A stretch of DNA of 64,000 nt from positions 651 through 64,650 of the forward strand of contig JAKSMQ010000005.1 of the NCBI GenBank assembly GCA_024400565.1, read 5' to 3'. A program made the translations under genes and the position numbers. Every line of letters starts with the position of its first letter. Position 1 is the stretch's first letter. Shown one piece after another: positions 1,105 through 18,428 of the stretch. The notes under the pieces were generated by a model, which did no database searches, was not told where the DNA came from, and saw only the letters and a program-made list of their open reading frames with translations. Source of the DNA: Bacteroidales bacterium (GTDB lineage: Bacteria > Bacteroidota > Bacteroidia > Bacteroidales > P3).

Positions 1105-1139
1105 TACGCAAACCCCATCATCCTGTCCCGTTTTCCGCT

Positions 1140-2921
1140 ATGAAGTTTCTGCTCCTTACCCCGCCTCTCACCCAGCTCAATACGCCCTATCCCGCCACAA
1201 CGGTATTGAAAGGCTTCCTCGAGTCCAATGGCCATCCTGCCGACCAGGCCGATCTGGGCATCGAACTCGTATCCCATATCCTTACAAGTCAGTTCCTTCG
1301 TCAATTGTTTGGCTCTGAGCTTACCTCCTGGCAGCAGCAGACCCTGACCGCCATCGACGTAGTGATGCGATTCTTAAGGGGCGAAGATAATACTCTGGCG
1401 CCGCGTATCGTCAACCGCAGTCTTCTGCCCGAAGGTCGGCGTTTCGACAGCCTTGCCGATATGGAGTGGGCGTTCGGAACCTCGGGAACCGAAGATAAGG
1501 CACGCTACCTCGCCACCCTTTTCATCGAAGATGTTGCCGACTATATCAGAGAAAACGTCGATTCCCATTTCGACCTCATTCGCTATGCCGAGCAGATAGC
1601 CAGCTATGCGCCAACTTTCGACGAGATAGAGCTCCATCTCAAAGCCCCGGCAACGGTTATCGACGAGTTGCTTATTTCCCTTCTGGACAGTCATCTGCAG
1701 CAGTCTGAACCCGACATAGTGTGTCTTTCCATTCCCTTCCCCGGCTGTCTCTACGGAGCCTTGCGTTGTGGCCAGTATATCAAATCGAGATATCCGTCCG
1801 TTCATATCAATCTCGGAGGAGGGTTCCCCAATACCGAATGGCGTAGCCTTACCGACGGCCGTATCTTTGATTATTGCGACACAATCTCTCTCGACGACGG
1901 CGAAACGCCACTATTGCGCCTGGCCAACAAAGAGCCTTTGGTGCGCACCTTTATCCGTAACGACAGCCACGAAGTAGTGTTTGTTGACCATCCTGCCGAG
2001 CCGCTCCTCAACACCACGACCCCCTCTTTCGAAGGCCTGCCCCTTCATCTTTATATCTCCCTTGCCGAGATGACCAATCCCATGCATCGTCTCTGGAGCA
2101 ACGGCCGGTGGAACAAGCTCATGATGGCCCACGGGTGTTACTGGCATCGTTGTGCCTTCTGCGATACCTCGCTCGACTACATAGGCCGCTATGCTGCCCC
2201 CACAGCCACACAGGTGGTCGACCATATGGAACGTATCGCTGCGCAGACCGGCAACACAGGTTTCCATTTCGTCGACGAGGCATTACCTCCCAAGCTGTTG
2301 CGCGAGGTGTGCGAAGAGATCCTGCGTCGAGGCGATGTCTTTACCTTCTGGGGCAATATCCGTTTCGAGAAGGCCTACACCCAGGAGCTCTGCGACCTGA
2401 TGGCCGATGCCGGCTGTGTAGCCGTCAGCGGAGGACTCGAGGTGGCTTCCAACCGCCTGCTCAAGCTCATCGACAAGGGTGTCACCATCGAGCAGACCGT
2501 CAACGCCTGTCGCCATTTCAAGCAGAGCGGCATCATGGTGCATACCTATCTCATGTATGGATTCCCCACCGAGACCCTCCAGGAATCCGTCAATGCCCTC
2601 GAGGTAGTACGCCGAATGTTCGACGAAGGCATCGTCCAGAGTGCCTTCTGGCATCGCTATGCCATGACGTGCCATTCCCCTTCGGGCCGCAATCCCGAAC
2701 GCTATGGAGCCCGTCGTGTCGAGGCAGCCCCCCATCCCTTCTGCAACAACGAGGTCGACTGGATGCCCCTCGAAGGACAGACAGACTCACAGTTCGACTA
2801 CGATATCGAAGCCGTAGGCGAAGCATTGCGCTTTGCGACCTACAATTATATGAACGAGATAGGACTCGATATGCCCCTCCGCCGCTGGTTCACCATCAAG
2901 GTCCCCAAGCCCACGGTCTAA
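1140..2921 (+). CDS. B12-binding-domain radical SAM protein
   Basis: The N-terminus MKFLLLTPPLTQLNTPYPATTVLKGFLESNGH is typical of the cobalamin-binding module of class B radical SAM enzymes. A Cys cluster GCYWHRCAFCD lies mid-protein. 593-aa ORF with an ATG start. Confidence 0.7.
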   Translation: MKFLLLTPPLTQLNTPYPATTVLKGFLESNGHPADQADLGIELVSHILTSQFLRQLFGSELTSWQQQTLTAIDVVMRFLRGEDNTLAPRIVNRSLLPEGRRFDSLADMEWAFGTSGTEDKARYLATLFIEDVADYIRENVDSHFDLIRYAEQIASYAPTFDEIELHLKAPATVIDELLISLLDSHLQQSEPDIVCLSIPFPGCLYGALRCGQYIKSRYPSVHINLGGGFPNTEWRSLTDGRIFDYCDTISLDDGETPLLRLANKEPLVRTFIRNDSHEVVFVDHPAEPLLNTTTPSFEGLPLHLYISLAEMTNPMHRLWSNGRWNKLMMAHGCYWHRCAFCDTSLDYIGRYAAPTATQVVDHMERIAAQTGNTGFHFVDEALPPKLLREVCEEILRRGDVFTFWGNIRFEKAYTQELCDLMADAGCVAVSGGLEVASNRLLKLIDKGVTIEQTVNACRHFKQSGIMVHTYLMYGFPTETLQESVNALEVVRRMFDEGIVQSAFWHRYAMTCHSPSGRNPERYGARRVEAAPHPFCNNEVDWMPLEGQTDSQFDYDIEAVGEALRFATYNYMNEIGLDMPLRRWFTIKVPKPTV

Positions 2922-3129
2922 CCCCCAGCCATAGGGTAGGGGACTATCCTCCATGCAACCGGTCTGCTCTGCCAGGGGTAGAAAAGATAAGTTTTTGATA
3001 TTTCTTCCTCCAGAGAGGAATGGTTTAGGCATCACGAAGCACATGTTTACGCCTGATGTGGTTAGTATTAATTAGAAAAGGCGACAGCAATAAAAGCATT
3101 TGTGTGATTTGCAATTGCATGCTCAACTT

Positions 3130-3411
3130 CTAATGCTCTATTGTCTGACCGAATTCTGACGTTGAATTCGTGTCATACAATTTCATCATATTGTAGAGTG
3201 AACGTTTGCTGTAGCCTCTGCGTTTAGGATTATGTCGCTTCAGGTAATCAGCCAATTCACTCACCACATAATCACCCCATTGAGTGTTCTTCAATCGGTC
3301 GGAGATGTAACTACCCACCTCCCCATACGTTTGTAATGTCTTAGCATTCACCTTGGCAATAGCAGTATTGGTGAGTGAGTTAACGTAAGCGAACTCTTGT
3401 TCGTGTTGCAC
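3130..3411 (-). pseudogene. DUF1016/YhcG-family N-terminal fragment (truncated PD-(D/E)xK nuclease-family gene remnant)
   Basis: The 93-aa ORF starts at GTG. The sequence (YGEVGSYISDRL...VSELADYLKRHNPKRRGYSKRSLYNMMKLYD) resembles only the N-terminal helical domain of YhcG-like proteins. The C-terminal nuclease domain is absent. Confidence 0.45.
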
Positions 3412-3500
3412 TTGTAACTAGGATTTAGGCTTTCTTTAGCCGAAAAAAAATATTTTTCCTCGTGCTATTCTTTCTCAAAAGTTGCATTTCTTATTGGAAC

Positions 3501-3962
3501 TTAGGGTAAATTTAGTGAAATATTTTCAAACGACATAGTCCAGTCTTGGCCATCAGTTTCATTAATGTCAGGCAGAAGGTAATCTTCTTTTTCGGGCAGC
3601 TCGGCCAATATAGCCTCGTCCGAAATCTGTAATTTCGCACGAATTCTCTTAAAAAAACTAATCTCGGAATATTCGATATTGTTATCCGCCTCTATTGTAT
3701 CAATGGCCAACTTGACAATTTGTAATTCTGCATGTTCAGAAAGTTGAGCAGCTGAAAGTTCTTTCAGGAATGAAGTTAGAAATTCATTTCCATCTCGTTG
3801 AATGTCTTCCACATATTCGCTAAGTTTGGACGAGATATCCAAGCCTTCAAATACAGCCTGATTTGTTGCAACACTCTTTACTAAGGCCAATTCCTCGTTG
3901 GCGATTTCGCCGTCGCATGCCATGCAGCAAAAGACGGTTTTCAAGAACAGTTCATTATTCAT
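3501..3962 (-). CDS. TerB-like (tellurite-resistance TerB fold) protein, last gene of the Hsp70 operon
   Basis: 153 aa. FCCMACDGEIANEELALVKSV plus a second half LAIDTIEADNNIEYSEISFFKRI fit the two-repeat TerB pattern (A-x-A/C-D-G-x-I-x-x-x-E). The ATG lies 5 nt after the stop of the kinase-AAA gene. Confidence 0.65.
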   Translation of the reverse strand: MNNELFLKTVFCCMACDGEIANEELALVKSVATNQAVFEGLDISSKLSEYVEDIQRDGNEFLTSFLKELSAAQLSEHAELQIVKLAIDTIEADNNIEYSEISFFKRIRAKLQISDEAILAELPEKEDYLLPDINETDGQDWTMSFENISLNLP

Positions 3963-3967
3963 AGTTG

Positions 3968-5746
3968 TTATCTTTTAAATCCAATTGGTTTGCGTTGAGT
4001 AATAGTTTGGTCGGTTTGTTCAATTTCGTTCCGAATAGACTCAAATTTCTTTAACTCTTCGAAAGGTATTGATGGCTTGTTTTTTGATATTGTCTGCAGT
4101 AGCAAGTCCATAGTTATCTTCTCGTCTTTTTCAAAAGCAATTCTAGCGGCCTCATCAACGATGAAATTCATATCGGCAGAGACATAGTTGTCCGTTTTCT
4201 CGGCCAACAAATCATAATCTATACCGAAATCTGTATATCGGTCCCTTAGTGCCAATTCAAAAAGAGCTTTACGTGCATTCTTGTCAGGAGGTCCGATATA
4301 GAACTTCTTTTCCAATCTACCGGAACCCAACATGGCCGGATCTATCATATTAGGATAATTGGTTGCCCCAATAACGAAAACCCCTTTCTCTCCAGTCCTG
4401 TCCATTTGTGCCAACATTTCATTCACAGCACTTTTTGACATTTCGTGGGAATCACTTGATCTATTGGGCAATAATTCATTTATTTCATCTATAAAGATTA
4501 TCGTTGGGGCATTCTCCTCGGCTTCTTTGAACATATTGGCTATGTTCTCTTGCGAAGCATTCACCCATTTACTTTTCAAATCAGCAGGGGTTTTCTGCAT
4601 GAAATTGAAGCCTACCTCCTCTGCCATCTTTTTAGCAAAGAAGGTCTTGCCACAACGTGGAGGACCATAGAGCAACATACCATTGGGCAAAGAAAGCCCG
4701 TAACGCTTCGACTTCTCTGGGTCCTTAATGATTCTGATAATATCCCTTGTTATCAAGTCTTTCAACTCCTGCATACCAGCCACATCAGCAAACCCATTTC
4801 CTTGAGGAATATTCACATTGCTACCTTTAGAAGATTCCTCCTTGTCAATTGGATGAGATGTTGCAATAGGTGACACTTTTATTTCACCCTTTAATGCCTT
4901 GGCAAATTCATCGGCAGACTGGAATCTGTCATCTGGATTATAGGCGAGTGCTTTGGCCATGATGTTTATCAGCTGTTCATCCAGTCCGGACTTTTCTCTG
5001 TCCAAGATTCGCAATGGTCGCTTTCGCTCATTATTGATAGTCTCTACCATAGCCAGCCTATCTCCTTTAAGTTTCGACAGATTGGTATAATATGGAGGTA
5101 GACCAAACAGTAGTTGATACAGCATAGCTCCAACAGAAAAGATGTCACTTTGTGGCGAAAACAAACCATTGAATGCTTCTGGTGCTTGGCAAAATAGGTC
5201 GAGACCATCTTTCTGAAACGAACGATGGTCTTGACTCATAAACCGGGCATAGCCAAAGTCAATGATGATTGGCTTGGCCATTCCTTTTGACATATCAAGC
5301 ATCACATTCTGCGTTGTCAGCTCATTATGAATAATTGGATTCGGCAAAGAATGAAGATACTTCAAACCGTCCAACACACCTAGCACAATTTGTTTGGCAT
5401 CAAACACAGTGCAGTCATTATCTCGTGTTGTTTTCTGCGCTGCGGTTTCGCCACTAATGAAGTCATACACCACATACAACATTCTTTTCCCATCTACCAA
5501 CATTTCACCACTATCTCGATAGTGAAGAACATTGGGATGATTCAGTTGCTCCGACACCTTCAACTCCAAACAATCACCATTCTCATCAAATTGTGTAGGA
5601 TGCAGTTTGTTGTAGGCAATCAACTTCAAGAAACAATTCTTGCCGCAAGGATCTTTAACGCGGTAAGTCTCAGCGTAAGTTCCTTGCTTTATTGGGAAGG
5701 CAACTGTGTATGAAGCAATCTCTTGATTCTTTTGTAGACTATACAT
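3968..5746 (-). CDS. Ser/Thr protein-kinase-like domain fused to a classic-clade AAA+ ATPase
   Basis: The N-terminal half has Hanks-kinase landmarks: FLKLIAY (Lys), IIHNELTTQNVML (catalytic loop, HNE in place of HRD), IIDFGYA (DFG), QAPEAF (APE) and SDIFSVGAMLYQLLFGLPPY. The C-terminal half has Walker A LLYGPPRCGKT, Walker B IIFIDEINEL, sensor-1 VIGATNYP and the second region of homology DPAMLGSGRLEKKFYIGPPD. Confidence 0.8.
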   Translation of the reverse strand: MYSLQKNQEIASYTVAFPIKQGTYAETYRVKDPCGKNCFLKLIAYNKLHPTQFDENGDCLELKVSEQLNHPNVLHYRDSGEMLVDGKRMLYVVYDFISGETAAQKTTRDNDCTVFDAKQIVLGVLDGLKYLHSLPNPIIHNELTTQNVMLDMSKGMAKPIIIDFGYARFMSQDHRSFQKDGLDLFCQAPEAFNGLFSPQSDIFSVGAMLYQLLFGLPPYYTNLSKLKGDRLAMVETINNERKRPLRILDREKSGLDEQLINIMAKALAYNPDDRFQSADEFAKALKGEIKVSPIATSHPIDKEESSKGSNVNIPQGNGFADVAGMQELKDLITRDIIRIIKDPEKSKRYGLSLPNGMLLYGPPRCGKTFFAKKMAEEVGFNFMQKTPADLKSKWVNASQENIANMFKEAEENAPTIIFIDEINELLPNRSSDSHEMSKSAVNEMLAQMDRTGEKGVFVIGATNYPNMIDPAMLGSGRLEKKFYIGPPDKNARKALFELALRDRYTDFGIDYDLLAEKTDNYVSADMNFIVDEAARIAFEKDEKITMDLLLQTISKNKPSIPFEELKKFESIRNEIEQTDQTITQRKPIGFKR

Positions 5747-5760
5747 AGCAGAGTGACAAA

Positions 5761-8304
5761 TTACAGGTAGTGAAACTTAGATTTTTGGATTTTCGTCTTT
5801 TCGTCTTCAGGTACATCTAGCAGGTCGATGACTCGTGCACACACCTGGCGGATAGATTCGGGGTCGGCATTATCATTGATCATCTGCTGAGCCTGATTGA
5901 GTAACTGTCTAGCCGTGGCAGCATCAGTCCATTTGTATCGACCAAAGTTATTATTATAGTGTTCTACAAAGGCAACTAGCTGATAAATAATTGTGACTTG
6001 GAAAAAGAGATGACCCATATCTCGCAGAACCTCTCTGCCCAATTTGGGATCTTTCTTTCGCACAGCCTCGTCAACTTGGCGGTGCATTTCGCGAACTTCA
6101 TTGTCGTATTCATTCCCCAAATCATTATTTGCAGTTTCCAGTCGCTCATATTCACTTCTGAGTTCGGCTTCTATCGATTCCCATTCGTGCATTTTCTCCA
6201 CCTCTTCCATTTTGCGGAAAGCTGTGCGAAGGTCTTTCATCAAATGGTCTTTGCCATCATCCTGTGATTTCTCACCTTCAAAACGACCAGAAACATCAGA
6301 TAGAATCTTTTCCACCTCCAATAGCTCGCTCTGCGGGATAGCCTTGCTGGATTTCAACGAACGCAATCTTCTATTAGCGTCCTGCATTCGCTGGGATAGA
6401 AGTTCTTCAGATACAGCCTGTTTGACGGAAATGGTCACTTCTTTCTCAACGGTTTCGCCACATGACACAAAGAACACCTCTAAATTGTAGTTCTGAGAGC
6501 TGTCCACCTTTAATGTCACATCAATATCGCTACCTTCTGGAATCAACATTGGCACATCATCGCCAGTAATCACAACATCATAGACATGATTGTTGTGGAT
6601 TGCGCTTGAGCCCTCAGCGCTATATTCGCCTTGATAGATGGGAATAACCATTCTATCCTGCTCCATACCAGGGCGTAAATTCTTGGGTACTTTCAATCCA
6701 TTACGGACACCTGTAGCTGGCAATTGCTGGTTTTTTTCCAAACCCTTCATCTGGACAAACACATCTCTATCTAAATCTGTATCACGAACCTCAATTCCAA
6801 TATGGTAAGGCAAGGTGGCATTGCCTACTTTCGTGCCTTGAATAATCGTTATTTCATTAGGAAAACACTGGATGGAATTACCTGTTCCGTCATATCCCTT
6901 TATAGCAAAAGCATTGGCTCTGCCTTCGTTAAGTCGACATTCTATAACATCGCCAATCTCATTCACCTCTACTTTGCCGCTGGACCAGCCCTTGTCGCTC
7001 CTTACCAGTTCTACAAATAGTTGCGACGGCATTGTGCCGACACACTCATTCGGCAATAGTTTTACTGTGACAAACTCCAAGGATTCCACACTATTGGCTT
7101 CATACTGGATATCAAGTGCCATAACCGAAGATATAGTATCAGTAGCACTAATAACTGGGCCTTCGGTATCAATACTCTGTGTAGCTGCAAATAATGCGGC
7201 GCCCTTGGCCACTGCCGTCATGGGGTCGATGCTGGTGTCCACGTTTGGCGTCACCTGGTCTTTCAGCATTTGGCGCAAAACAGGCGAGAAAGTCGGACCA
7301 CCAACTAGTATCAAACTATCCAACTTGCTGCCCGACAAATTGTTTCGCCTCAACAATTCAAGACACTTGTCAATTGCCTTCTGGAAGATAGGGGCTACAA
7401 CCTTGGCAATCTCCTCTTGCGAAATCACCATATCCAACTCGATAGCCTCACCCTCATCATCCTCGCCAAACTCGTCAATCTGAGACATGATATCGCATTG
7501 GGGTTTGAAGGAAAGCTGATTCTTGGCCTGCTCGGCATAATACTTCATGGCATCGCGCAAAATCTCACGTTTACGACTATCAGCCATTATATCATCTATG
7601 GTATAGTTGTCTTTCAAATAAGGAATGATTATCTGATCGACTATGGAATAGTCAAGGTTCTTGCCACCCAGATAGTTGTCGCCTTCAGTGTCAATCACCT
7701 TCATGATGCCATCTTCCACTTTCAATAGGGCTGCGTCGAAAGTACCGCCACCAAAGTCGAACACCATCCAATATCCGTCTTTCTTGTCTGTGCTCAAGCC
7801 GTATGCCATCGAAGCCGCAATGGGTTCTTGCAACAATTCGCAGTACTCAATACCCGCCATAGTAGCAGCACGTTTGGTGGCAGCAATCTGAGTGGCATCA
7901 AACATAGCAGGAATAGTAATAACAGCTGTATTGATGGTGTCGTCTGTAACAAACGACTTCAAAGTTTTAAGGACTTCTGAAGACAGGTCTTCTGACGAAT
8001 AGCTTCTGTCCATATTAGAACTATGGTATTGGGTGGCCAAACCCATAGTACGCTTAAACTCAATGAAAACATTTGTGGCCTCATTTGTCCATTTTTTTGT
8101 ACTTCGACTTCTGTCTGTTCTTAAGTCATTATATGCACCATCTCCGACTTTGACAATTTTCCTTTTTGAAAAGGAAACACAAGAGGGAAGAGTATCTTTT
8201 AAGGTGTCAGTTTTCTTAATAATGGGTTCTCCATTTTCCATCTTGCAGATGGCGGAATTGGTTGTACCCAAATCAATTCCGTATTTCATCTTTATTTGAG
8301 CCAT
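5761..8304 (-). CDS. divergent Hsp70/DnaK-family ATPase (847 aa) with extra inserted domain and long helical tail
   Basis: NBD motifs are GIDLGTTNS, VITIPAMF, LLQEPIAASMAYG, DFGGGTFD, DNYLGGKNLD, LILVGGPTFSPVLRQ and DPMTAVAKGAALFA. An SBD-beta-like segment follows (LPYHIGIEV...IPIYQGE...VVITGDDVP...IDVTLKVD), then about 220 aa of charged helical sequence. An alternative ATG lies at 8289. Confidence 0.85.
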   Translation of the reverse strand: MAQIKMKYGIDLGTTNSAICKMENGEPIIKKTDTLKDTLPSCVSFSKRKIVKVGDGAYNDLRTDRSRSTKKWTNEATNVFIEFKRTMGLATQYHSSNMDRSYSSEDLSSEVLKTLKSFVTDDTINTAVITIPAMFDATQIAATKRAATMAGIEYCELLQEPIAASMAYGLSTDKKDGYWMVFDFGGGTFDAALLKVEDGIMKVIDTEGDNYLGGKNLDYSIVDQIIIPYLKDNYTIDDIMADSRKREILRDAMKYYAEQAKNQLSFKPQCDIMSQIDEFGEDDEGEAIELDMVISQEEIAKVVAPIFQKAIDKCLELLRRNNLSGSKLDSLILVGGPTFSPVLRQMLKDQVTPNVDTSIDPMTAVAKGAALFAATQSIDTEGPVISATDTISSVMALDIQYEANSVESLEFVTVKLLPNECVGTMPSQLFVELVRSDKGWSSGKVEVNEIGDVIECRLNEGRANAFAIKGYDGTGNSIQCFPNEITIIQGTKVGNATLPYHIGIEVRDTDLDRDVFVQMKGLEKNQQLPATGVRNGLKVPKNLRPGMEQDRMVIPIYQGEYSAEGSSAIHNNHVYDVVITGDDVPMLIPEGSDIDVTLKVDSSQNYNLEVFFVSCGETVEKEVTISVKQAVSEELLSQRMQDANRRLRSLKSSKAIPQSELLEVEKILSDVSGRFEGEKSQDDGKDHLMKDLRTAFRKMEEVEKMHEWESIEAELRSEYERLETANNDLGNEYDNEVREMHRQVDEAVRKKDPKLGREVLRDMGHLFFQVTIIYQLVAFVEHYNNNFGRYKWTDAATARQLLNQAQQMINDNADPESIRQVCARVIDLLDVPEDEKTKIQKSKFHYL

Positions 8305-8316
8305 ATTGAGAAGTGT

Positions 8317-9174
8317 TTAGTTTTGACTTACTGTGATTTGCGCAGATTGGATCATTACTCCGTTATAATTAATCTGCGGTTTTGTGATACCTGTGATGAT
8401 TTGCTGACCCGGTTCCAAGTTCTCGTCTTCAACAAAATTAGCAACAACTTTCATTCCTTCATGATAAGGCTTTCCAAGCATATCAACAATCTCATATCCA
8501 TTGGCCAGCAGGTTACTTTTCATCTGATCAATTGATTTGGACAGTTGTTTATAACCTTTTACAGTTTTATCCATACGGTATAACGTGACTTCCATAAAAG
8601 CAATTCTGTCAGCAAGAGTCTTGATAAGGTCTGTCATGTCTTCAGACGACACATTACTTGAAGGAGCCGATGCTGCGGTGGCTATCTTCTGCAACTCTGA
8701 TAGTTCTGTATTCAGCTTTGTTACAACTTGTTCATTCAACTTATCGGCTTTCTCTTTGAGTTCGGTAATCTCATTTGTTCCATAGAGGATTCGTTTGCGC
8801 AAAACCACAAAGACTACAACAACCATAACCAATAGTGCCGCAATCAGAATAGCACCCAATATACTTTTGGATTTAATATTCTGTTCGTTGCTTGATACGG
8901 CAGTTTCAGTTGTTTTGATTTTCACACCTAAAGAATCAGCAATGACCTTTACATTGCTTGCATTCTTTTGAATGGCTTCATCTTGTTTGAGGTTAGCACT
9001 CAAAAGGTTGGCATTAGCGGAAGCAAGCGAATCATACTGTGTCTTCAAAGATTGCATTTGGAGCTCCAACGAGACCACCCTCTTATTCAACATAGATAAA
9101 CTATCTTGCTGAGCATAACTGATGAAAGTTATGGCAAGAAATAAGAATGGTAAAAATAATTTAATAAGTTTCAT
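8317..9174 (-). CDS. bitopic membrane protein with coiled coils and C-terminal GrpE-like domain
   Basis: The ATG at 9174 gives a signal-like N-terminus MKLIKLFLPFLFLAITFISYAQQ; the track start at 9222 is TTG. One internal TM is ILGAILIAALLVMVVVVFVVLRKR. The C-terminus NGYEIVDMLGKPYHEGMKVVANFVEDENLEPGQQIITGITKPQINYNGVMIQSAQITV follows the GrpE beta-domain pattern (compare E. coli [55 protein letters not shown]). Confidence 0.6.
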   Translation of the reverse strand: MKLIKLFLPFLFLAITFISYAQQDSLSMLNKRVVSLELQMQSLKTQYDSLASANANLLSANLKQDEAIQKNASNVKVIADSLGVKIKTTETAVSSNEQNIKSKSILGAILIAALLVMVVVVFVVLRKRILYGTNEITELKEKADKLNEQVVTKLNTELSELQKIATAASAPSSNVSSEDMTDLIKTLADRIAFMEVTLYRMDKTVKGYKQLSKSIDQMKSNLLANGYEIVDMLGKPYHEGMKVVANFVEDENLEPGQQIITGITKPQINYNGVMIQSAQITVSQN

Positions 9175-9184
9175 ATCGATTATT

Positions 9185-10669
9185 TTAATTACATGTTGCA
9201 ATACAAAATCCAATAATTCCAAATATTACATATATTATTATTTGAACAATACTGCCGCCATATTCGTCCCAAAAAACTCTGAAGCGACTTGTTGGAATAC
9301 CAATTTGACTACACAATTTTTTCAATGTTCTACGATTAGTATTGTATCTTTCTTTGAGGGCGGCATCCATGTCAAATTTGTCCATTAATAATGTGGCATC
9401 CCAGGCGTCTTTGAATGAGCGTCTTATAATAAATATCCTCATACTTCCCAAAGATGAATATTCCTTTTGTACCGCATTAATCTCCTCAATTACATTGTGT
9501 AATGCATTGTTCACCACCTTGGAAGACAAATTCAGATAGTAACTGTTAGTTACACCCAATTTCGCCTTCATTGCTTGCAGTTTCGGCTTGGTATTGTTTA
9601 ACAATGTAACTGAGTGCTCAATCTTGTCGGGTTTTTTACAAAAATCCTTTAACTCTTTGAATATGGCAATAGCTTCCTGCTCGACACCAGCAGGGGGCAG
9701 ATTTTTTTCTTTTTTGGCTAATGTTTCAACAGCCTGTTCGCAGCGGTCTTTGGTGATTTTTCCGACTGCTACTTTTGTGGCATACTCGGCCAGTTTCTTT
9801 GCGTTTAGTACATACTCTCTACTTTCATCACTATTATTGAAATAGTTAATGCTACATTGAAGAATCTGATTTGCCAACTTATCTGCCAATCGTTGATAAT
9901 CAACATCATTTGCACCGACCAACGCAATTAATCGAAGACGAATCCTATGAGTAGAATTACTTAACTCCTTGCCAGCCTCCTCCCATAATTTTGATTCATC
10001 ACCTTTGGTTGCTCTTGCCTTAGATATTGCATTCTCTATGATTTCGAACCGCTTCTGTATGGAATATTTTCGAATATTTTCTACCACCCAAAAATCAATA
10101 GAATTTCCGACATTTTGAAAAACATCGAATGCGTCTATCTCTTCAAAGACTTTGGAGAAGAATGTCTCTGCAAGTTCTTCTTTGGAGATTTGAATTGTAT
10201 CACCCGCAACAGCATTGACAAATCCAGTACGCATATCATCATTCTGAATCATCTTGCCCATGCAAGTTATTGCCGCAATATTCTCACCCGCAATAAACGC
10301 CAATACGCTTCGATTGACTAGTGCAGCGAATGTGTCTCGTTTGGAGAAAAGCTCTAAGGCTTTCTCCTCGTCACCCTTAACAAGATACTCCCATGCCATT
10401 GCTCCAACTGAATCTTCTGGTTTGATGAACCAAAACAAGGCATGAGTCAACTTGCCCTGAGGCAAGTTGATATTTGCTGTTGCTTGTCCAACCGACGCTG
10501 TATCTCGTTCTAACGAAGGCTGCCCACCAACACAATCAAGTGGGAAAGAAACGGTTTTGCTTGCTGCCAAATATGCCTTCAGCTTAGATTGATTGGCCGC
10601 AATTTCTTTGGCACTAGCGTTAGTGGGTACGCCTAATATTCTAAAAGGATTATTGCTAATAATATTCAT
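9185..10669 (-). CDS. tail-anchored J-domain-like protein (no HPD motif), first gene of the Hsp70 operon
   Basis: The N-terminus NPFRILGVPTNASAKEIAANQSKLKAYL matches J-domain helices I-II (YYxILGVxxxASxxEIKxAYRKLA), but the HPD position reads AAS. A long helical middle follows, then a C-terminal hydrophobic anchor IVQIIIYVIFGIIGFCIATCN. Confidence 0.55.
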   Translation of the reverse strand: MNIISNNPFRILGVPTNASAKEIAANQSKLKAYLAASKTVSFPLDCVGGQPSLERDTASVGQATANINLPQGKLTHALFWFIKPEDSVGAMAWEYLVKGDEEKALELFSKRDTFAALVNRSVLAFIAGENIAAITCMGKMIQNDDMRTGFVNAVAGDTIQISKEELAETFFSKVFEEIDAFDVFQNVGNSIDFWVVENIRKYSIQKRFEIIENAISKARATKGDESKLWEEAGKELSNSTHRIRLRLIALVGANDVDYQRLADKLANQILQCSINYFNNSDESREYVLNAKKLAEYATKVAVGKITKDRCEQAVETLAKKEKNLPPAGVEQEAIAIFKELKDFCKKPDKIEHSVTLLNNTKPKLQAMKAKLGVTNSYYLNLSSKVVNNALHNVIEEINAVQKEYSSLGSMRIFIIRRSFKDAWDATLLMDKFDMDAALKERYNTNRRTLKKLCSQIGIPTSRFRVFWDEYGGSIVQIIIYVIFGIIGFCIATCN

Positions 10670-10725
10670 TGTTTAAGTCTTCTTGCTAAAGGACATAAAA
10701 AAAGAACCGCGAACTTTTTGTTCAG

Positions 10726-10831
10726 CCCGAGGTCCTAGGATAACCTACACTACAAACAAGAAAGCCCACGGTATTACCGCGAGCGATTCTCCTTTCTTGT
10801 GTAGTGTACTTGAAATTTCCTAGGTTTCGGG
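10726..10831. repeat. long imperfect inverted repeat (about 106-nt nested hairpin) in the leader of the Hsp70 operon
   Basis: The outer arms CCCGA..TCCTAGGA (10726-10740) pair with TCCTAGG..TCGGG (10818-10831). The inner arms TACACTAC-AA-ACAAGAAAG (10746-10764) pair with CTTTCTTGT-GTAGTGTA (10792-10808). The 27-nt loop contains a small CGG/CCG stem. Confidence 0.6.
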
Positions 10832-10941
10832 TACTGCAAAGAAAAGCGAAAACGCTTTTTTATATGTTATATTTAATTATTTTCTTTCTATTTTATTGTT
10901 TTATAATGTTTTATTGTTGATTAGTATTCTTTTTCAGTTTG

Positions 10942-10949
10942 CAAATATA
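10942..10949 (-). promoter_or_regulatory. candidate Bacteroidetes -7 box (TATATTTG) for the Hsp70 operon
   Basis: The reverse complement of CAAATATA is TATATTTG, matching TAnnTTTG. It lies about 270 nt upstream of the ATG at 10669. A possible -33 TTTG at 10978-10975 sits at non-ideal spacing. Confidence 0.4.
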
Positions 10950-11082
10950 CAAAGATTTTGGAAATTAGTGGTAACAAAATGCTTGAGGACAGGTATTTTT
11001 ATGATACAATAGGGTATCAAGAAGAAATTGGTTTTTATACATCAAATATGTGATGGCTCAACCACAATCATTCTTATGTGCT

Positions 11083-11739
11083 TTATATTACAATCCCGTT
11101 CTCCTTGAGTATTTGCTCGAGATGCTCTATGCGGTCGCGCAAGGCTGCATTCTCGTTTCGAAGCATTTCTATCTGTTGTTTCTGGTTGCTACGATAGCCC
11201 AGTCTGGCCGCTGTCATCCTTTCGCGTATGCCTCCCTCTTCTACAAATTTCCGTTCTAGCTGTTCCTGGTAGGAGGTCATCAGCTTGTCGGTGATATGGC
11301 AGAGGGTAAGCGCCACATTGGCCATCTCCACATCGTCCCACACTTCGAAGTATTGTTCATAGTCCTCCACCTTGTTGTGGACGCGGCAATATTCGAGCAT
11401 AGAACGATAGCGAGGATGCCCCTCGGTCCAAACGGGCAGCTGCCGAGCACCAAGGTAGTCCTGGTAGTCTTCGCGCAGTTCCTTGAGACTTCCGCGGGCA
11501 CAATTGAGCAGTTTTACCTCCATCTCCATACTGGTCACACCATCGGCAGCCCCCTCTACAATATTTTGCTTGCCCGATCGAGCCGCTTGCACCATCTGGT
11601 CAACAGTTCGGTCGCCCTTGCGAAGGAATCGCTCGGTGAACCGATAGGTGAGCATATACAGCGTGTTGGCCTTCTGGTAGAAGTACAGTTCTTCCCAGTG
11701 GGTCTGCTTGCGCAAGAAGGTGGGGTGAGGCGTTGGCAT
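11083..11739 (-). CDS. four-helix-bundle protein (23S rRNA intervening-sequence protein / Avd-like family) with C-terminal coiled-coil extension
   Basis: LYFYQKANTLYMLTYRFTERF...QMVQAARSGKQNIVEGAA is typical of the four-helix-bundle family common in Bacteroidota. A leucine-zipper-like tail QIEMLRNENAALRDRIEHLEQILKE follows. ATG start. Confidence 0.7.
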   Translation of the reverse strand: MPTPHPTFLRKQTHWEELYFYQKANTLYMLTYRFTERFLRKGDRTVDQMVQAARSGKQNIVEGAADGVTSMEMEVKLLNCARGSLKELREDYQDYLGARQLPVWTEGHPRYRSMLEYCRVHNKVEDYEQYFEVWDDVEMANVALTLCHITDKLMTSYQEQLERKFVEEGGIRERMTAARLGYRSNQKQQIEMLRNENAALRDRIEHLEQILKENGIVI

Positions 11740-11768: not shown

Positions 11769-11925
11769 GGGGGGGGATTTTCTAGGGGGGGGGGGCTAGG
11801 ATTTTCTAGGGATTCCTAGGATTTCTAGGGTTTCTAGGGATTCCTAGGGTGGGGGACTATGGGGATGGAATTTCTTGGGGGCTTGGGATTTTGGGATTCT
11901 TGTATTCTTGTGTTCTACCTTGGTT
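11769..11925. repeat. degenerate ~10-bp tandem repeat (ATTYCTAGGG) with G8 and G11 homopolymer tracts
   Basis: CTAGG occurs at 11782, 11796, 11806, 11816, 11825, 11834 and 11844 (spacings 14, 10, 10, 9, 9, 10). G8 is at 11769-11776 and G11 at 11785-11795. The array decays into TTCTTGGGG / TTTTGGGA / TTCTTGT variants up to about 11925. T8/T6/T8 tracts at 11742-11766 precede it. Confidence 0.8.
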
Positions 11926-14107: not shown

Positions 14108-14262
14108 GACTACAAAAGTGGCTGTTTTGACTACAAAAGTACTACAAAAACACTACAAAAACACTACAGAATCTCTACAAAAACACTATTTCGACTCTGA
14201 ATCGACTCTACAATATCTCTACAAAATCACTATATCGTCTCTACAATGTCTCTACAAAACCA
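14108..14262 (+). repeat. array of CTACAA(A/T) motifs in strict 11-bp register (phased A-tracts)
   Basis: CTACA starts at 14110, 14131, 14142, 14153, 14164, 14175, 14208, 14219, 14241 and 14252. From 14131 to 14252 every spacing is a multiple of 11. TCGACTCT is also duplicated 11 nt apart (14191, 14202). Confidence 0.85.
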
Positions 14263-14321: not shown

Positions 14322-14978
14322 ATGGCAAAATTATCAGCAAAATTCGGACCAATACACGGAAATGACGGTAACACCGCTTACCGCACAATCAACGGAACCA
14401 CGTTCCAAAACTACATTGACACCGCAGCGCCCAAGAAGGAGCGTACCCCGCGTCAGAAGACCTATGGGGCATTGCTGAAGGTGATGAACAGGTATACGTA
14501 CATTCATTACCCGGATCTGACGGCATTCTTTCCCAAAGGCAATAAACGATCCTCCCGTCATGCATTCCTTGCACATAACAGGGAGAGCCTTGCCGCAGCC
14601 TTGTATTCTCTGGCAGAGCGTAGTGCAAACGGAGAGAAAATCACAGACCAGCAGATTGAGGATGCAGTCAGCACCTATGCACAGGCCAATCCCCGCAGCA
14701 TTGTGGTGGGACTGAGGAAAGGTTATCTGCCTATATACCTTGAGGGTGAATGGCCTTCAAAGTTCAGATTCCTGCTGTACGACCAGGCAGTCACCCCTGC
14801 CGAGTTTCAGACGGCAGACGGCACGTTTGTGCAGGAAGAGGGAGATGCTGACGCCAATGGCGGAACCACAGGCAATGGTGGAGATGCCAACTCGGGTCAG
14901 GGAGGCACTTCCCAGTCTCAGACTGGTGGCACCTCTAATCCTGGTGGCGGTTCCTCTGGCGGCTACGACGGCGACTAG
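14322..14978 (+). CDS. hypothetical protein with Gly/Ser/Thr-rich low-complexity C-terminal tail
   Basis: 218-aa ORF with an ATG start and a terminator hairpin downstream. The C-terminus is GDADANGGTTGNGGDANSGQGGTSQSQTGGTSNPGGGSSGGYDGD. No family confidently recognised. Confidence 0.55.
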   Translation: MAKLSAKFGPIHGNDGNTAYRTINGTTFQNYIDTAAPKKERTPRQKTYGALLKVMNRYTYIHYPDLTAFFPKGNKRSSRHAFLAHNRESLAAALYSLAERSANGEKITDQQIEDAVSTYAQANPRSIVVGLRKGYLPIYLEGEWPSKFRFLLYDQAVTPAEFQTADGTFVQEEGDADANGGTTGNGGDANSGQGGTSQSQTGGTSNPGGGSSGGYDGD

Positions 14979-15019
14979 GCTGATGAGCAGCGGGCTACAG
15001 CCTGATGCTGACGGGAAAC

Positions 15020-15052
15020 GGGCGGTCGGAAGGCCGCCCTTTTGCTTTTGTT
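15020..15052 (+). terminator. rho-independent terminator
   Basis: GGGCGG (15020-15025) pairs with CCGCCC (15034-15039), followed by TTTTGCTTTTGTT. Confidence 0.65.
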
Positions 15053-15149
15053 GCGTGACGGGGGAGGGGAGAGGGGATGCCTTCGGCTCAGGAGATAAAC
15101 GGACAGAGATGCTCCGTCCCTATGCTCTGCTGAAAAGGATGCAGACTAT

Positions 15150-16040
15150 TTAAGGATTGGGATGCTGCAGGTTGCGCTGCCATTGGGCGTGTTTTATCCT
15201 GTTGATGGCAGAATGGCGGGTGCGCCGGCGGAACTCTGTGGGGTCTGTCGCGGAGAGTGTCTCCAGCTCGCGGATTCTCTGGTCGGATATCTCTACTGTG
15301 GGGGGCACGTCTTTGTTGTACGGACACACCATCTGGCAGCAGTCGCAGCCGAAGCTGTAGCCATTCAGGGTGAGGTCGACGGGCAGTTGGGGGGCACGGT
15401 TCTCGATGGTGTTGTAGGAGATGCATCGGCGGCAATCGAGTCCTTTCTCGTCGAGGGCGTGGTTGGGACAGGCCTTGAGGCAGAGCGTACAGTCGTGGCA
15501 ACGGCTCTCTATGGGGCTGTCGTAGCGGTCGAACGCGGAGGTGGTGACCAACTCGGCCACATGACAATAGCTGCCATAGGTGGGGTTGACGAGCAGGGTG
15601 TGCTTTCCTATCCATCCCAATCCGGCCTGGGCAGCCCACAGCTTGTCGCTGATGGGGACTGTGTCGACGCAGGGCTTGGCCTCGAAGGTGGGGTGGCTTT
15701 CGCGTATGAGGGCTATCAGACGGAAGAGCATCTGCCTGATGCGCTCGTGGTAGTCGTCGCCATAGGCATACTGGGCTATGCGATGGGGACCTTGCATGGT
15801 CTGCGATGGCTTGTAGCCCAACAGGAGGCAAATGACGGATTGGGCTCCTTCGACCAGCAGCCGGGGGTCGCTCCGCATCTCGACGTGCTTTTCCATAAAC
15901 TGCATGTCGCCCTGGCGCCCCAGGCTGAGCCACGTTCTGAACCGCGCTTCAAAGCCCTCCAGCTGTGTGGCACGGGCTATGCCGCAGCCGTGAAAACCTA
16001 CGGAGCGGGCTATTGTCTTGATTTGGGCTGAGGAGAGCAT
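15150..16040 (-). CDS. queG: epoxyqueuosine reductase
   Basis: Ferredoxin-type Cys motifs are CHDCTLCLKACP and CRRCISYNT...CDCCQMVCP, together with the conserved GLGWIGKHTLLVNP. Start set at the internal ATG at 16040 (MLSSAQIKTIA), because the 86-aa Arg/Gln-rich N-terminal extension of the ORF overlaps the upstream gene. Confidence 0.85.
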   Translation of the reverse strand: MLSSAQIKTIARSVGFHGCGIARATQLEGFEARFRTWLSLGRQGDMQFMEKHVEMRSDPRLLVEGAQSVICLLLGYKPSQTMQGPHRIAQYAYGDDYHERIRQMLFRLIALIRESHPTFEAKPCVDTVPISDKLWAAQAGLGWIGKHTLLVNPTYGSYCHVAELVTTSAFDRYDSPIESRCHDCTLCLKACPNHALDEKGLDCRRCISYNTIENRAPQLPVDLTLNGYSFGCDCCQMVCPYNKDVPPTVEISDQRIRELETLSATDPTEFRRRTRHSAINRIKHAQWQRNLQHPNP

Positions 16041-16135
16041 AGGACGAAAAGGGGATGGGAGGAGGGATGAAATAGAGACGGGAAACGTGCCCGTCTCTAT
16101 CTTTTGTTGGGAGATCTGTTTCTCTTGGGGGGCGA

Positions 16136-17368
16136 TTATTCGTCCTCTCCGGCGTTCTGTTTCGATGCTTTCTTGCTGCCTTCGTAGAGCTTGAACTGGA
16201 GGAAGCGGCAGTCGAGCGAGCCGTTGAGGAGGGGAATCTTGCGCGAAGGCTTGAGACCGATGTGCTTCATGGCCTCGAAGTCGCTGGTGATGAGCCATAC
16301 CTCGCAGTTTTCGCCATAGAGGTTCTTGAAGGTGTTGCCCAGCTGTTCGTACATGAGGTTGAGGTCTTCAATCTTGATACGCTCGCCATAGGGAGGGTTG
16401 GTGACGATGAGAGTGCGTCCCTCGGGGGGCTCCTGGTTTTCGAAGCTGCCGTTGTAGAGCATGACGTCCTTGTGGAGCTTGGTGAACTGGAGGTTCTTCT
16501 CGCATTGTTCGAGTACGTTCATGTCGATGTCGTTGCCCCATATCTCGTAGTCGAAGTCGTTGCTGCCAATCTTGCGGTCTTCTTCGAGCTTGACACGTTT
16601 CCACTCGCCGAGGTTGAACTCTTTCCATTTCATGAAGCCGAATCCCTGGTGGCGGTAGTACTGGGCGGGGATGTTGTTGGCAAGCATGGCGGCCTCGATG
16701 AGCATGGTGCCCGAACCGCACATAGGATCCATGAAGTTGCAGTCGCACTTCCAGCCCGAGAGTTTGAGCATACCTGCAGCCAGCACCTCGTTGATGGGGG
16801 CAATACCTACACCCTGGCGGTAGCCGCGTTTGTGGAGCGAGTCGCCGCTCGAGTTCATGAGAAGGGTGACGTGGTTGTCGCGGATGTGGAGGTTGAACTT
16901 ATAGTCGGCGTTGTCGGTATTGATGGAGGGACGGCGACCGAAATACTTGCGGAAACGGTCGGCGATAGCGTCCTTGGTCTTGAGGGCTGCATAGTAGGAG
17001 TGGGTGAAGATTTCTCCGCTGGTGGAGGAGTCGATCATGAAGGTGCTGTCGAGGTCCATAATCTTTTCCCACTTGATGTCGAAGCACTTCTTGTAGAGCT
17101 CGTCGGTAGAGTTGGCCTCGAACTCGGCAAAGGGCTTGAGGATGGCCAGGGCGGTACGGCAGGTGTAGTTGGCACGGTAGAGGGTGCGCATATCGCCACG
17201 GAAGGAGACGGCACGGCTGAGAAGTTCGATATCTGTAGCTCCCAGCTCTCTCAACTCTTCGGCCAGTATCTCTTCCATGCCCTGCATGGTTTTGGCTATC
17301 ATGTTGAACTTGTCGAGTTTGGTAGGTTCGATGGGCACTACCCGACCATTTTTCTTCTGGATTATCAT
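16136..17368 (-). CDS. THUMP-domain class I SAM-dependent RNA methyltransferase (RlmL/UPF0020-like)
   Basis: KFNMIAKTMQGMEEILAEELRELGA is the THUMP N-terminus. DPMCGSGTMLIEAA is SAM motif I. VTNPPYGERI is the NPPY catalytic motif. Confidence 0.85.
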   Translation of the reverse strand: MIIQKKNGRVVPIEPTKLDKFNMIAKTMQGMEEILAEELRELGATDIELLSRAVSFRGDMRTLYRANYTCRTALAILKPFAEFEANSTDELYKKCFDIKWEKIMDLDSTFMIDSSTSGEIFTHSYYAALKTKDAIADRFRKYFGRRPSINTDNADYKFNLHIRDNHVTLLMNSSGDSLHKRGYRQGVGIAPINEVLAAGMLKLSGWKCDCNFMDPMCGSGTMLIEAAMLANNIPAQYYRHQGFGFMKWKEFNLGEWKRVKLEEDRKIGSNDFDYEIWGNDIDMNVLEQCEKNLQFTKLHKDVMLYNGSFENQEPPEGRTLIVTNPPYGERIKIEDLNLMYEQLGNTFKNLYGENCEVWLITSDFEAMKHIGLKPSRKIPLLNGSLDCRFLQFKLYEGSKKASKQNAGEDE

Positions 17369-17390
17369 AGGGCAATCAATTGTTTTTTTT

Positions 17391-18428
17391 CTATTGTTGG
17401 GTTTCGGGCGCAGCCTCGCGGTCCTGGGTGGCTACGGCCTTGTTGAGGAGATTCTCCTTGAGCTTCTCGGCTTTGTGCTGCATGGCTATGCGGCCTTGCG
17501 CTACGGCAATATTGATTTCGTAGCCTACAAGCAGCACGAGGCAGTTGAGGTAGATCCAAAGCATCAGCACCAGCAAAGTACCGATAGAACCGTAGAGGAT
17601 GTTGTAGCGGTTGAAGGTGGTGAGGTATATCTGGAATCCCCAGGTGAGTCCGAAAAGGAGTACGGTAGCTATTACGGTACCTATGGAGAAGAAGCCTACC
17701 CGCTGTTTCTTGCCGGGGGCGGCATAGTAGATGAGGCCGATGACCAGGAGGGCAAAGAAGGCCAGTACTATCCAGCGGATGAAGCTGATGATGAAACGGT
17801 TGAAGGCTGTATGGGCTATGAAGCCGTGTTCGAACAGCCAGGAGATGATGGAGTGGTAGCCCAGCTGGAGCACGACGATGAAGATGACCAGCAGGTAGAG
17901 CAGGAATACCAGCAGGAAACAGATGCCGTAGCGCTGGAGAAGCGGACGGGTGTCGACAGCCGGATTGGCGTAGTTGAACGACATGATCATGCTGTGCATA
18001 CCGTTGCCGGCAAGGAAGATGGAGGTTGCAAAGCCGATGGAGAGCAGGCTGTTGTGCCTGTGGCCCATAACCTCGGTAATGGTGGGCTCTATCATATTAT
18101 AGATAGAGGTGGGAAAGATGTGTCCCAGCTCGACGAGGAGGGCCTGCTGGAGGCCTTCGACGGGGAAGAGGGGTATGAGGGTGAAGAGGAAGATGAGCAG
18201 GGGAGGAATGGCCGTAAGGAAGGAGTAGGCCAGCCCCTTGGCTCTCTGCCACAGAGTGCCGTTGGCTACGCCCAGCAGGAAGAACCGGAGCACCTCCCAT
18301 ACGGGTACGCCCTTGCTGCCGGGCAGGGAGAAATGATGCAGAAAATAGACGCTCTGCATCACCCTACGCTTGAACAGCATGTGGCGTAGCTTGTCGCTAT
18401 GCTTGAGGGGTTTCTTCTGTGGTGCCAT
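17391..18428 (-). CDS. YihY/BrkB-family membrane protein
   Basis: Multi-TM protein with LAYSFLTAIPPLLIFLFTLIPLFP and YGSIGTLLVLMLWIYLNCLVLLVGYEIN, both typical of the YihY family. Confidence 0.75.
   Translation of the reverse strand: MAPQKKPLKHSDKLRHMLFKRRVMQSVYFLHHFSLPGSKGVPVWEVLRFFLLGVANGTLWQRAKGLAYSFLTAIPPLLIFLFTLIPLFPVEGLQQALLVELGHIFPTSIYNMIEPTITEVMGHRHNSLLSIGFATSIFLAGNGMHSMIMSFNYANPAVDTRPLLQRYGICFLLVFLLYLLVIFIVVLQLGYHSIISWLFEHGFIAHTAFNRFIISFIRWIVLAFFALLVIGLIYYAAPGKKQRVGFFSIGTVIATVLLFGLTWGFQIYLTTFNRYNILYGSIGTLLVLMLWIYLNCLVLLVGYEINIAVAQGRIAMQHKAEKLKENLLNKAVATQDREAAPETQQ

Follow-up and report, generated by a model that had tools for sequence, protein, structure and literature searches.

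A predicted membrane-anchored GrpE-like protein encoded beside a divergent Hsp70 in a five-gene cassette of Bacteroidales

The DNA analysed here, referred to below as the window, is a stretch of 64,000 nucleotides (nt) from a Bacteroidales bacterium (GenBank assembly GCA_024400565.1, contig JAKSMQ010000005.1, positions 651 to 64,650 of the forward strand). Within it, five genes form a tight minus-strand operon (9185-10669, 8317-9174, 5761-8304, 3968-5746 and 3501-3962), which we call the cassette and whose second gene codes for a predicted membrane protein with a GrpE-like cytoplasmic part. The remaining genes code, in the same order, for an upstream protein of 494 amino acids (aa), a divergent Hsp70, a protein that joins a kinase to an AAA+ ATPase (kinase-AAA+), and a TerB-domain protein. 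The GrpE-like gene lies in a maximal minus-strand open reading frame (ORF) at 8317..9222 that opens with a TTG. Since close homologues begin at ATG 9174, which sits 10 nt past the stop codon of the upstream gene (9185-9187), we take this ATG as the true start of a 285-aa product that begins MKLIKLFLPFLFLAITFISYAQQDS and that is laid out as follows.

8317-9174, minus strand: coding sequence of the bitopic membrane GrpE-like protein, 285 aa, with its start at ATG 9174 rather than TTG 9222 and its stop codon at 8317-8319.
9112-9174, minus strand: predicted signal peptide, residues 1-21, MKLIKLFLPFLFLAITFISYA followed by QQ, with K2 and K5 in the n-region, a hydrophobic h-region, and S-Y-A before the predicted cleavage site.
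8863-9111, minus strand: predicted periplasmic helical (coiled-coil-like) segment, residues 22-104, ~83 aa, variable in length and sequence and helical in the full-length AlphaFold2 model.
8800-8862, minus strand: predicted transmembrane (TM) helix, residues 105-125, ILGAILIAALLVMVVVVFVVL, followed by RKR at 126-128; mean Kyte-Doolittle hydropathy 3.35 over 19 aa.
8668-8793, minus strand: cytoplasmic long helix, residues 128-169, putative counterpart of the GrpE stalk (helix 2-43 of the AlphaFold2 fragment model, included in the whole-chain Foldseek matches).
8503-8646, minus strand: two helices, residues 177-200 and 208-224, putative counterpart of the GrpE four-helix bundle (helices 51-74 and 82-98 of the fragment model).
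8323-8496, minus strand: C-terminal beta domain, residues 227-284, putative counterpart of the GrpE beta domain (six AlphaFold2 strands; aligned to E. coli GrpE by hhalign).

An earlier reading of this DNA, made from the sequence alone, had described the product of ATG 9174 as a signal sequence, a heptad region, a TM helix followed by RKR, a second coiled-coil stretch and a C-terminal segment. That order stands, and the C-terminal string then quoted, NGYEIVDMLGKPYHEGMKVVANFVEDENLEPGQQIITGITKPQINYNGVMIQSAQITV, matches residues 225-282 exactly, while the heptad region, put at about 100 aa, measures ~83 aa.

The topology of the protein was drawn from hydropathy and charge counts, which are heuristics. 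Its N-terminus, MKLIKLFLPFLFLAITFISYA followed by QQDS, shows n-, h- and c-regions of the Sec signal type with a predicted cut between SYA and QQ, and the glutamine at +1 agrees with the ‘Q-rule’ of Bacteroidetes signal peptidase I. A signal-type h-region was present at the N-terminus of 89-93% of 117 full-length relatives, and 258 of 269 family members possess one internal TM helix, with two more possessing two. In the 12 residues flanking this helix, the 117 relatives carry a mean of 3.71 lysines and arginines on the C-terminal side versus 1.98 on the N-terminal side, and the count is greater after the helix than before it in 100 of them. Because of the signal region, the TM helix and this positive-inside bias, the C-terminal part can be assigned to the cytoplasm and the N-terminal helix to the periplasm, and the protein is predicted to be a bitopic, type I-like inner-membrane protein with an N-out/C-in orientation, of which 159 residues (127-285) would be cytoplasmic. 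The GrpE-like part is thereby placed on the side of the membrane where the sequence-only reading had needed it to be.

We modelled these 159 residues with AlphaFold2, using an alignment of 64 diverse relatives, and obtained a predicted local distance difference test (pLDDT) score of 93.3 and a predicted template-modelling (pTM) score of 0.80. The model contains helices at 2-43, 51-74 and 82-98 and six strands within 101-158 (fragment numbering), that is, the long helix, the two bundle helices and the small beta domain by which the GrpE fold is recognized. When the model was compared with the PDB using Foldseek, the best 12 matches were all GrpE (E = 3.8e-5 to 3.8e-3, probability 0.95-1.0), human GrpEL1, E. 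coli 1DKG, Geobacillus 4ANI, Thermus 3A6M and M. tuberculosis 8GB3 being among the top chains. These alignments span 139-169 columns, essentially the entire chain, and the first match to anything other than GrpE appeared at E = 0.34. A library of viral structures, used as a control, returned nothing better than E = 0.19, and the cytoplasmic model is therefore no promiscuous matcher of coiled coils.

Sequence comparisons point in the same direction, at scores below curated cut-offs. When the cytoplasmic parts of 64 diverse relatives were scanned against Pfam, GrpE (PF01025) was the commonest family, matched by 16 of them (best E = 4.7e-4); the fragment from the window matched it with E = 0.017 over profile positions 18-165 of 165, starting at fragment residue 8. 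An hhalign comparison of the family profile with a profile of three GrpE sequences (in which the E. coli sequence was checked against 1DKG) gave P = 1.7-1.8e-4 and a probability of 48-49%, and paired fragment residues 88-158 (214-284 of the full-length protein) with residues 126-194 of E. coli GrpE, C-terminus on C-terminus. A search seeded with the three GrpE sequences returned near-identical GrpE from Enterobacteriaceae and Geobacillus only, so that no deeper GrpE profile could be had and the hhalign probability stayed at ~48%. In addition, a hidden Markov model (HMM) of the family ranked real GrpE sequences over reversed and shuffled controls (best P of 4e-5 versus 1e-3; median of 3.0 versus 0.3 bits). 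In 144 of 149 representatives the GrpE-like domain stops 0-2 residues short of the C-terminus, and we counted this in favour of GrpE, whose domain ends at the same position. The sequence-only reading had likened the last 60 aa to the GrpE beta domain and had staked that claim on a profile or structural match to GrpE. The likeness is borne out by hhalign, the Pfam fragment scans, the family HMM and the Foldseek result, in which GrpE took all of the top places, while its restriction to those 60 aa proved too narrow, the whole cytoplasmic part being GrpE-like.

The family to which this protein belongs is large, and its members are unannotated in databases (‘hypothetical protein’). We found 3335 homologues at 90% clustering, and a search with the cytoplasmic part returned 987 clusters at 50% identity with E ≤ 1e-3, 759 of which had E ≤ 1e-10. 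Across 117 relatives, mean column identity was 0.26 in the periplasmic segment, 0.34 in the TM helix, 0.40 in the stalk, 0.65 in the bundle helices and 0.76 in the beta domain. Since conservation climbs towards the C-terminus and is highest in the beta domain, the strongest constraint falls where canonical GrpE contacts the nucleotide-binding domain (NBD) of Hsp70. The periplasmic segment varies in length, with the TM helix starting anywhere from residue 80 to residue 174 in the same relatives, and among close homologues it holds a more conserved motif near N71, A79, G83 and T89. The cytoplasmic part, in contrast, is tightly held at a median of 164 aa (range 142-198), about the size of structured GrpE. 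Some other genomes contain GrpE-like ORFs of 536 and 678 aa, possibly fusions or mis-called starts, and one representative (P0235) measures 4676 aa.

Relatives are encoded in at least 271 of ~186,000 species-representative genomes. The carriers are mostly gut and rumen Bacteroidales (Muribaculaceae, Prevotella, Bacteroides and Parabacteroides distasonis), with scattered members in Desulfovibrio, Sutterella, Aeromonadales and some Firmicutes bins. Metagenome-assembled genomes labelled Desulfovibrio, Sutterella, Opitutae, Enterobacterales, Aeromonadales and several Firmicutes carry such members (loci L049, L051-L053, L068, L074, L084 and others). Carriers outside the Bacteroidales reflect either horizontal transfer out of that order or binning errors.

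The gene directly downstream of the GrpE-like gene codes for its putative partner.

5761-8304, minus strand: divergent Hsp70, 847 aa (NBD at 9-404, a divergent substrate-binding domain (SBD) and a long helical C-terminus), beginning 12 nt past the GrpE-like stop; Pfam HSP70 E = 1.2e-65.

To see how general this pairing is, we compared 84 related loci, 80 of them from distinct species-representative genomes, calling neighbouring genes by phmmer (E ≤ 1e-5) with the proteins of the window as queries, so that all counts are of homologues of window genes. An Hsp70 gene lies directly downstream of the GrpE-like gene, across a gap of about 10-20 nt, in 82 of the 84 loci, and the two loci without it are contigs that end right past the GrpE-like gene. 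Among PDB entries, the cassette Hsp70 matches Geobacillus DnaK best (residues 8-431, E = 5.5e-46). Its phosphate-binding and catalytic motifs are retained (GIDLGTTNS, FKR, QEP, DFGGGTFD and LVGGPT), and it should therefore hydrolyse ATP and cycle nucleotide. Two separate stretches, 390-431 and 499-586, each correspond in alignments to the beginning of the SBD beta sandwich, and the protein may hold an extra beta module; beyond this lies a helical C-terminal extension of ~200 aa. The Hsp70s of the family are ~835 aa long.

Prokaryotic Hsp70s have been grouped as DnaK, HscA and HscC (PMC8215388). The cassette Hsp70 shares 29% identity with E. coli HscC over the NBD, and both lack the segment corresponding to DnaK 76-101. 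The cassette protein, however, keeps the IIB segment that is absent from HscC and carries extra inserts, including one of 11 aa after DnaK position ~57. We ruled out membership of the HscC type because of these features, together with its length of 847 aa and the GrpE-like gene beside it. Judged by sequence, it fits none of the three types.

The three other genes of the cassette are as follows.

9185-10669, minus strand: upstream protein, 494 aa, without a Pfam match; conserved N-terminal NPFRILGV...FPLD and a C-terminal hydrophobic tail.
3968-5746, minus strand: kinase-AAA+ protein, 592 aa, a Ser/Thr protein kinase joined to a Cdc48/FtsH-type AAA+ ATPase; Pfam Pkinase 7.9e-29, AAA 8.3e-36.
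3501-3962, minus strand: TerB-domain protein, 153 aa, encoded at the end of the cassette; the window copy matches Pfam TerB at a sub-threshold E = 0.0026.

Homologues of the upstream, kinase-AAA+ and TerB proteins were found in 80, 68 and 56 of the 84 loci, respectively. The conserved N-terminus of the upstream protein (NPFRILGV..N....E..AN...LKAYL.VGK.V.FPLD) resembles helices I-II of a J domain, with FPxD where HPD would be expected, and no HPD motif is present in this J-like segment. A profile search of the PDB placed two J domains on top, but weakly (E = 0.12 and 0.63); hhalign gave a probability of 4.8% for a J domain, and Pfam DnaJ was matched by one of 26 members (E = 0.1). We therefore call this protein ‘possibly J-like’ and no more. 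A C-terminal hydrophobic tail, a candidate tail anchor, is present in the window copy and in 41 of 79 homologues. The PADLOC likenesses of the kinase-AAA+ protein are to mad6 and PD-T4-6 in its kinase half and to IetA in its AAA+ half. At the start of its gene, an overlap of about 16 nt with the stop of the Hsp70 gene was noted. For the 153-aa protein, Pfam TerB was matched by all 13 of the homologues tested (best E = 4.4e-6), and the protein has a conserved CxxCDG..EE motif.

In the window, the guanine-cytosine (GC) content is 37-46% over the stretch that holds the cassette (3000-11000) and 53-60% in the flanks (1-3000 and 15000-19000). Elsewhere the cassette is found near an integrase gene, or near RadC, SSB and helix-turn-helix (HTH) genes. 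Since it forms a low-GC island here and keeps such neighbours in other genomes, the cassette behaves as mobile cargo. Neither a tRNA gene nor convincing direct repeats around the cassette were found within the window. The mobile setting, together with the defence-like similarities of the kinase and the AAA+ ATPase, suggests a role in stress tolerance or conflict, and we regard the cassette as a probable stress or conflict system associated with the membrane.

Several further observations concern the cassette and its surroundings. A truncated ORF with a DUF1016 N-terminal domain (3130-3411) lies at one edge of the low-GC stretch. In many loci, a slot of 0-1.7 kb between the Hsp70 and kinase-AAA+ genes, which is empty in the window, is occupied by differing small genes, such as one for a CpXC-domain protein (L001 11464-12310; L004 11485-12078). 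Cassette variants elsewhere include an upstream gene present as two tandem paralogues (947 and 725 aa) and two consecutive Hsp70 ORFs; together with the long GrpE-like ORFs, these come from a group of loci (L001/L014 2979-8001; L055 10508-14471; L074 8852-10462; L084 8432-10468). Outside the cassette, window positions 11803-11848 hold three overlapping repeats of the TTTCTAGGG(A/T)TTCCTAGG type upstream of a gene of the 23S-rRNA-IVP family (11083-11739), whose product also bears a leucine-zipper-like helix at its C-terminus. A tandem 11-nt unit (ACTACAAAAAC and variants, about 9 copies) at 14130-14232 lies upstream of an ORF (14322-14978) whose product has a Gly/Ser/Thr-rich tail.

We consider it very probable that the whole cytoplasmic portion of the second gene product is a remote homologue of GrpE, in fold and by descent, that lies below curated thresholds. 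We also consider it likely that the protein serves the adjacent Hsp70 as a dedicated GrpE-type co-chaperone tethered to the membrane, its most likely function being that of a nucleotide-exchange factor acting as a dimer. From the sequence features, predicted fold, topology heuristics and gene linkage described above, we infer how it might dimerise, bind Hsp70, exchange nucleotide, be oriented at the membrane and serve the cassette. The signal peptide would be cleaved and the variable helical segment of ~83 aa exported to the periplasm, anchored by the one TM helix. The 159 cytoplasmic residues would form a diverged yet architecturally complete GrpE, with a stalk, two bundle helices and a beta domain, and would dimerise in the manner of GrpE. 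Such a dimer would serve the 847-aa Hsp70 as an exchange factor, or at least as a co-chaperone that binds its NBD. In known complexes of GrpE with DnaK, the stalk has its N-terminal end close to the SBD of the Hsp70. In the protein described here this end of the stalk leaves the membrane directly, and the tether would therefore turn the substrate-binding end of the Hsp70 towards the inner membrane. The pair belongs to a horizontally mobile five-gene cassette.

Several results weigh against this proposal. The fragment from the window scores 15.2 bits against a Pfam GrpE cut-off of 25.8, and no relative was seen to reach that cut-off. The full-length protein has no GrpE match at E ≤ 1 in Pfam, and the NCBIfam and PADLOC scans likewise gave coiled-coil noise; GrpE surfaced because the cytoplasmic fragment was scanned alone. 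Sequence and profile searches of the PDB, with the full-length protein and further queries, never retrieved GrpE, returning coiled coils and the GAT domain of GGA1 instead. (A match to 8qox_B, with E = 8e-5, was dismissed as compositional, since it covers just the low-complexity coiled coil and the TM helix.) No GrpE label or name was found among the best 120 of the 3335 homologues. The Foldseek TM-scores are just 0.32-0.46, with large root-mean-square deviations, which we attribute to a different packing of the stalk in the monomer model. Three Hsp70-contact residues of the E. coli GrpE beta domain were compared with the family in the low-confidence hhalign register. Arg183, a DnaK-binding hot spot, falls at a variable position, and Arg186 pairs with an invariant Gln, both arginines being invariant across the three GrpE sequences compared; V192 corresponds to a conserved Val. 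The chemistry of the putative Hsp70 interface, if there is one, would thus have diverged from that of canonical GrpE. Finally, the specialised bacterial Hsp70s HscA and HscC are held to need no exchange factor (PMC8215388).

It is possible, though we think it unlikely, that the protein goes beyond tethered exchange and transduces a signal. As an extension of the proposal above, a pair of periplasmic helices would sense a cue in the envelope or periplasm (for example damage, a partner protein or contact with a phage), and a shift or unwinding passed on through the TM helix and stalk would toggle the putative exchange activity. The full-length AlphaFold2 model is suggestive here, in that periplasmic segment, TM helix and stalk form one uninterrupted helix (2-169), but this is a monomer built on a 24-sequence alignment (pLDDT 72, pTM 0.30), with a C-terminal domain at pLDDT 43-52 that is unusable, and one long helix is the default output for such a sequence. 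The stalk of canonical GrpE is already regulatory, serving as a reversible thermosensor (PMC12987570), and the kinase-AAA+ fusion and the TerB protein are cassette partners of a signalling type. The periplasmic segment is kept in nearly all members along with its semi-conserved motif, and is otherwise fast-evolving and variable in length, as is often the case for sensor or ligand-contacting modules; its identity of 0.26 would, however, suit a mere spacer or anchor equally well, and the protein has no recognisable sensor domain.

Taking this further, and with less probability again, the cassette might represent a fourth prokaryotic Hsp70 machine beside DnaK, HscA and HscC, with a transmembrane receptor as its exchange factor. 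A periplasmic or envelope cue, passed down a continuous dimeric helix to the GrpE stalk, would gate exchange, and the dedicated Hsp70 would then free or remodel the kinase-AAA+ effector. Such a switch, serving defence or the stress response, would travel on mobile islands among gut Bacteroidales.

Lower still we would place the idea that the protein is a GrpE-fold anchor or latch devoid of exchange activity, which binds the NBD and either parks the Hsp70 at the membrane or keeps it open and nucleotide-free until some trigger arrives. The apparent loss of counterparts to E. coli R183 and R186 would suit this idea, as would the view that HscA and HscC do not require an exchange factor (PMC8215388) and the strictness of the gene pairing, which calls for interaction rather than catalysis. 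Against a latch, the model retains the complete GrpE architecture, stalk included, and the interface residues may have co-evolved with a divergent partner. Moreover, binding by GrpE itself opens the nucleotide cleft, as in the 1DKG structure, so that to bind is to exchange.

That the resemblance is due to chance or convergence, in which case this would be a membrane protein with coiled coils whose small beta domain is unrelated to GrpE and whose label is a coiled-coil artefact, is very improbable: every sequence score is sub-threshold, full-length searches are dominated by coiled-coil noise and coiled-coil-based ‘GrpE-like’ labels do exist in the literature (PMC12625404), but the hhalign match falls in the beta domain and not in the coiled coil, the Pfam alignment covers nearly the whole GrpE model, Foldseek lists no coiled-coil protein at E-values comparable to those of its GrpE matches, the viral control was negative, and the gene is always beside an Hsp70 gene. 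The ‘GrpE-like domain’ of a phage tail fibre in that literature is not comparable, as it is a coiled-coil label only.

If the protein is a membrane-tethered GrpE-type co-chaperone, as we propose, it can be set beside several known systems. With canonical GrpE, Mge1 and GrpEL1 (PF01025) it shares the predicted fold and order of elements, a structured part of ~160 aa and a genetic pairing with Hsp70. It differs from them in its identity of about 15-24%, below the Pfam threshold, in apparently lacking conserved counterparts of R183 and R186, and in having as its partner an Hsp70 of ~835 aa that is not DnaK. Where canonical GrpE has a disordered N-terminal tail, this family has a signal peptide, a periplasmic helix and a TM helix, and the gene lies on mobile islands, whereas canonical GrpE is encoded in a housekeeping operon. 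E. coli DjlA is a TM-anchored co-chaperone of DnaK with a TerB-like domain and a J domain. Like the protein described here, DjlA brings Hsp70 to the inner membrane, and in both cases a TerB-type domain is tied to the Hsp70 machinery; DjlA, however, is a J-protein that stimulates the ATPase rather than an exchange factor, is not known to have a notable periplasmic domain and carries its TerB domain as a fusion, whereas the TerB protein of the cassette is the product of a separate gene.

E. coli HscC, which works with the tail-anchored DjlB and DjlC, likewise provides a case of a specialised, sporadically distributed Hsp70 at the inner membrane, acting there through membrane-anchored co-chaperones (PMC8215388). 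The upstream protein of the cassette is similar in size to DjlB/DjlC and has a tail anchor in about half of the loci, but BLASTP found no similarity between it and DjlC. No exchange factor is thought necessary for HscC, nor is one encoded beside it (PMC8215388), whereas the membrane-anchored partner here is GrpE-like, and the cassette Hsp70 is ~290 aa longer than HscC. We therefore rejected membership of the HscC/DjlC system, the upstream protein being unlike DjlC and the Hsp70 unlike the HscC type. In yeast, Snl1 is an Hsp70 exchange factor that a TM segment anchors in the endoplasmic reticulum membrane (PMC3962485). It is eukaryotic, its BAG three-helix bundle is an unrelated fold, and it is not known to have an extracytoplasmic coiled coil. 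Non-housekeeping Hsp70s also occur in mobile multi-gene systems with kinases and AAA+ or other NTPases, namely the GAP1-N2 GTPase systems with fusions of HSP70, GrpE and DnaJ (PMC7159879) and CoCoNuT with CnuD (PMC11090510). In the accessible parts of these two sources, the exchange factor is named plain GrpE with no mention of a membrane anchor, and the systems come mainly from actinobacteria and firmicutes and are built round GTPases or McrBC. We rejected an identity with CoCoNuT or with the ternary and GTPase conflict systems, since the cassette contains none of their core genes.

The reviews consulted describe GrpE-like proteins as soluble, in the cytoplasm or the mitochondrial matrix, and mention no transmembrane or membrane-anchored form; with its signal peptide and strong TM helix, the protein described here departs from that description. 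A full-text literature search, whose coverage was incomplete, turned up no account of a transmembrane GrpE, this protein family or the cassette, in keeping with an earlier remark that the arrangement seemed undescribed. Since membrane-anchored Hsp70 co-chaperones (DjlA, DjlB/DjlC and Snl1) and Hsp70-GrpE-DnaJ modules are already known, the GrpE-like family is not categorically new. Its two additions would be a form of GrpE that is integral to the inner membrane and extends beyond the cytoplasm, and a greatly enlarged Hsp70 as its dedicated partner. Even if the exchange function is not confirmed, recognition of a distant homologue of GrpE that escapes the present profile libraries would be useful for annotation, and the analysis flags a widespread five-gene cassette in the human-gut genera Parabacteroides, Bacteroides and Prevotella. 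If the exchange function holds true, the family would offer a tractable bacterial case of spatial, and possibly signal-dependent, control of the Hsp70 cycle.

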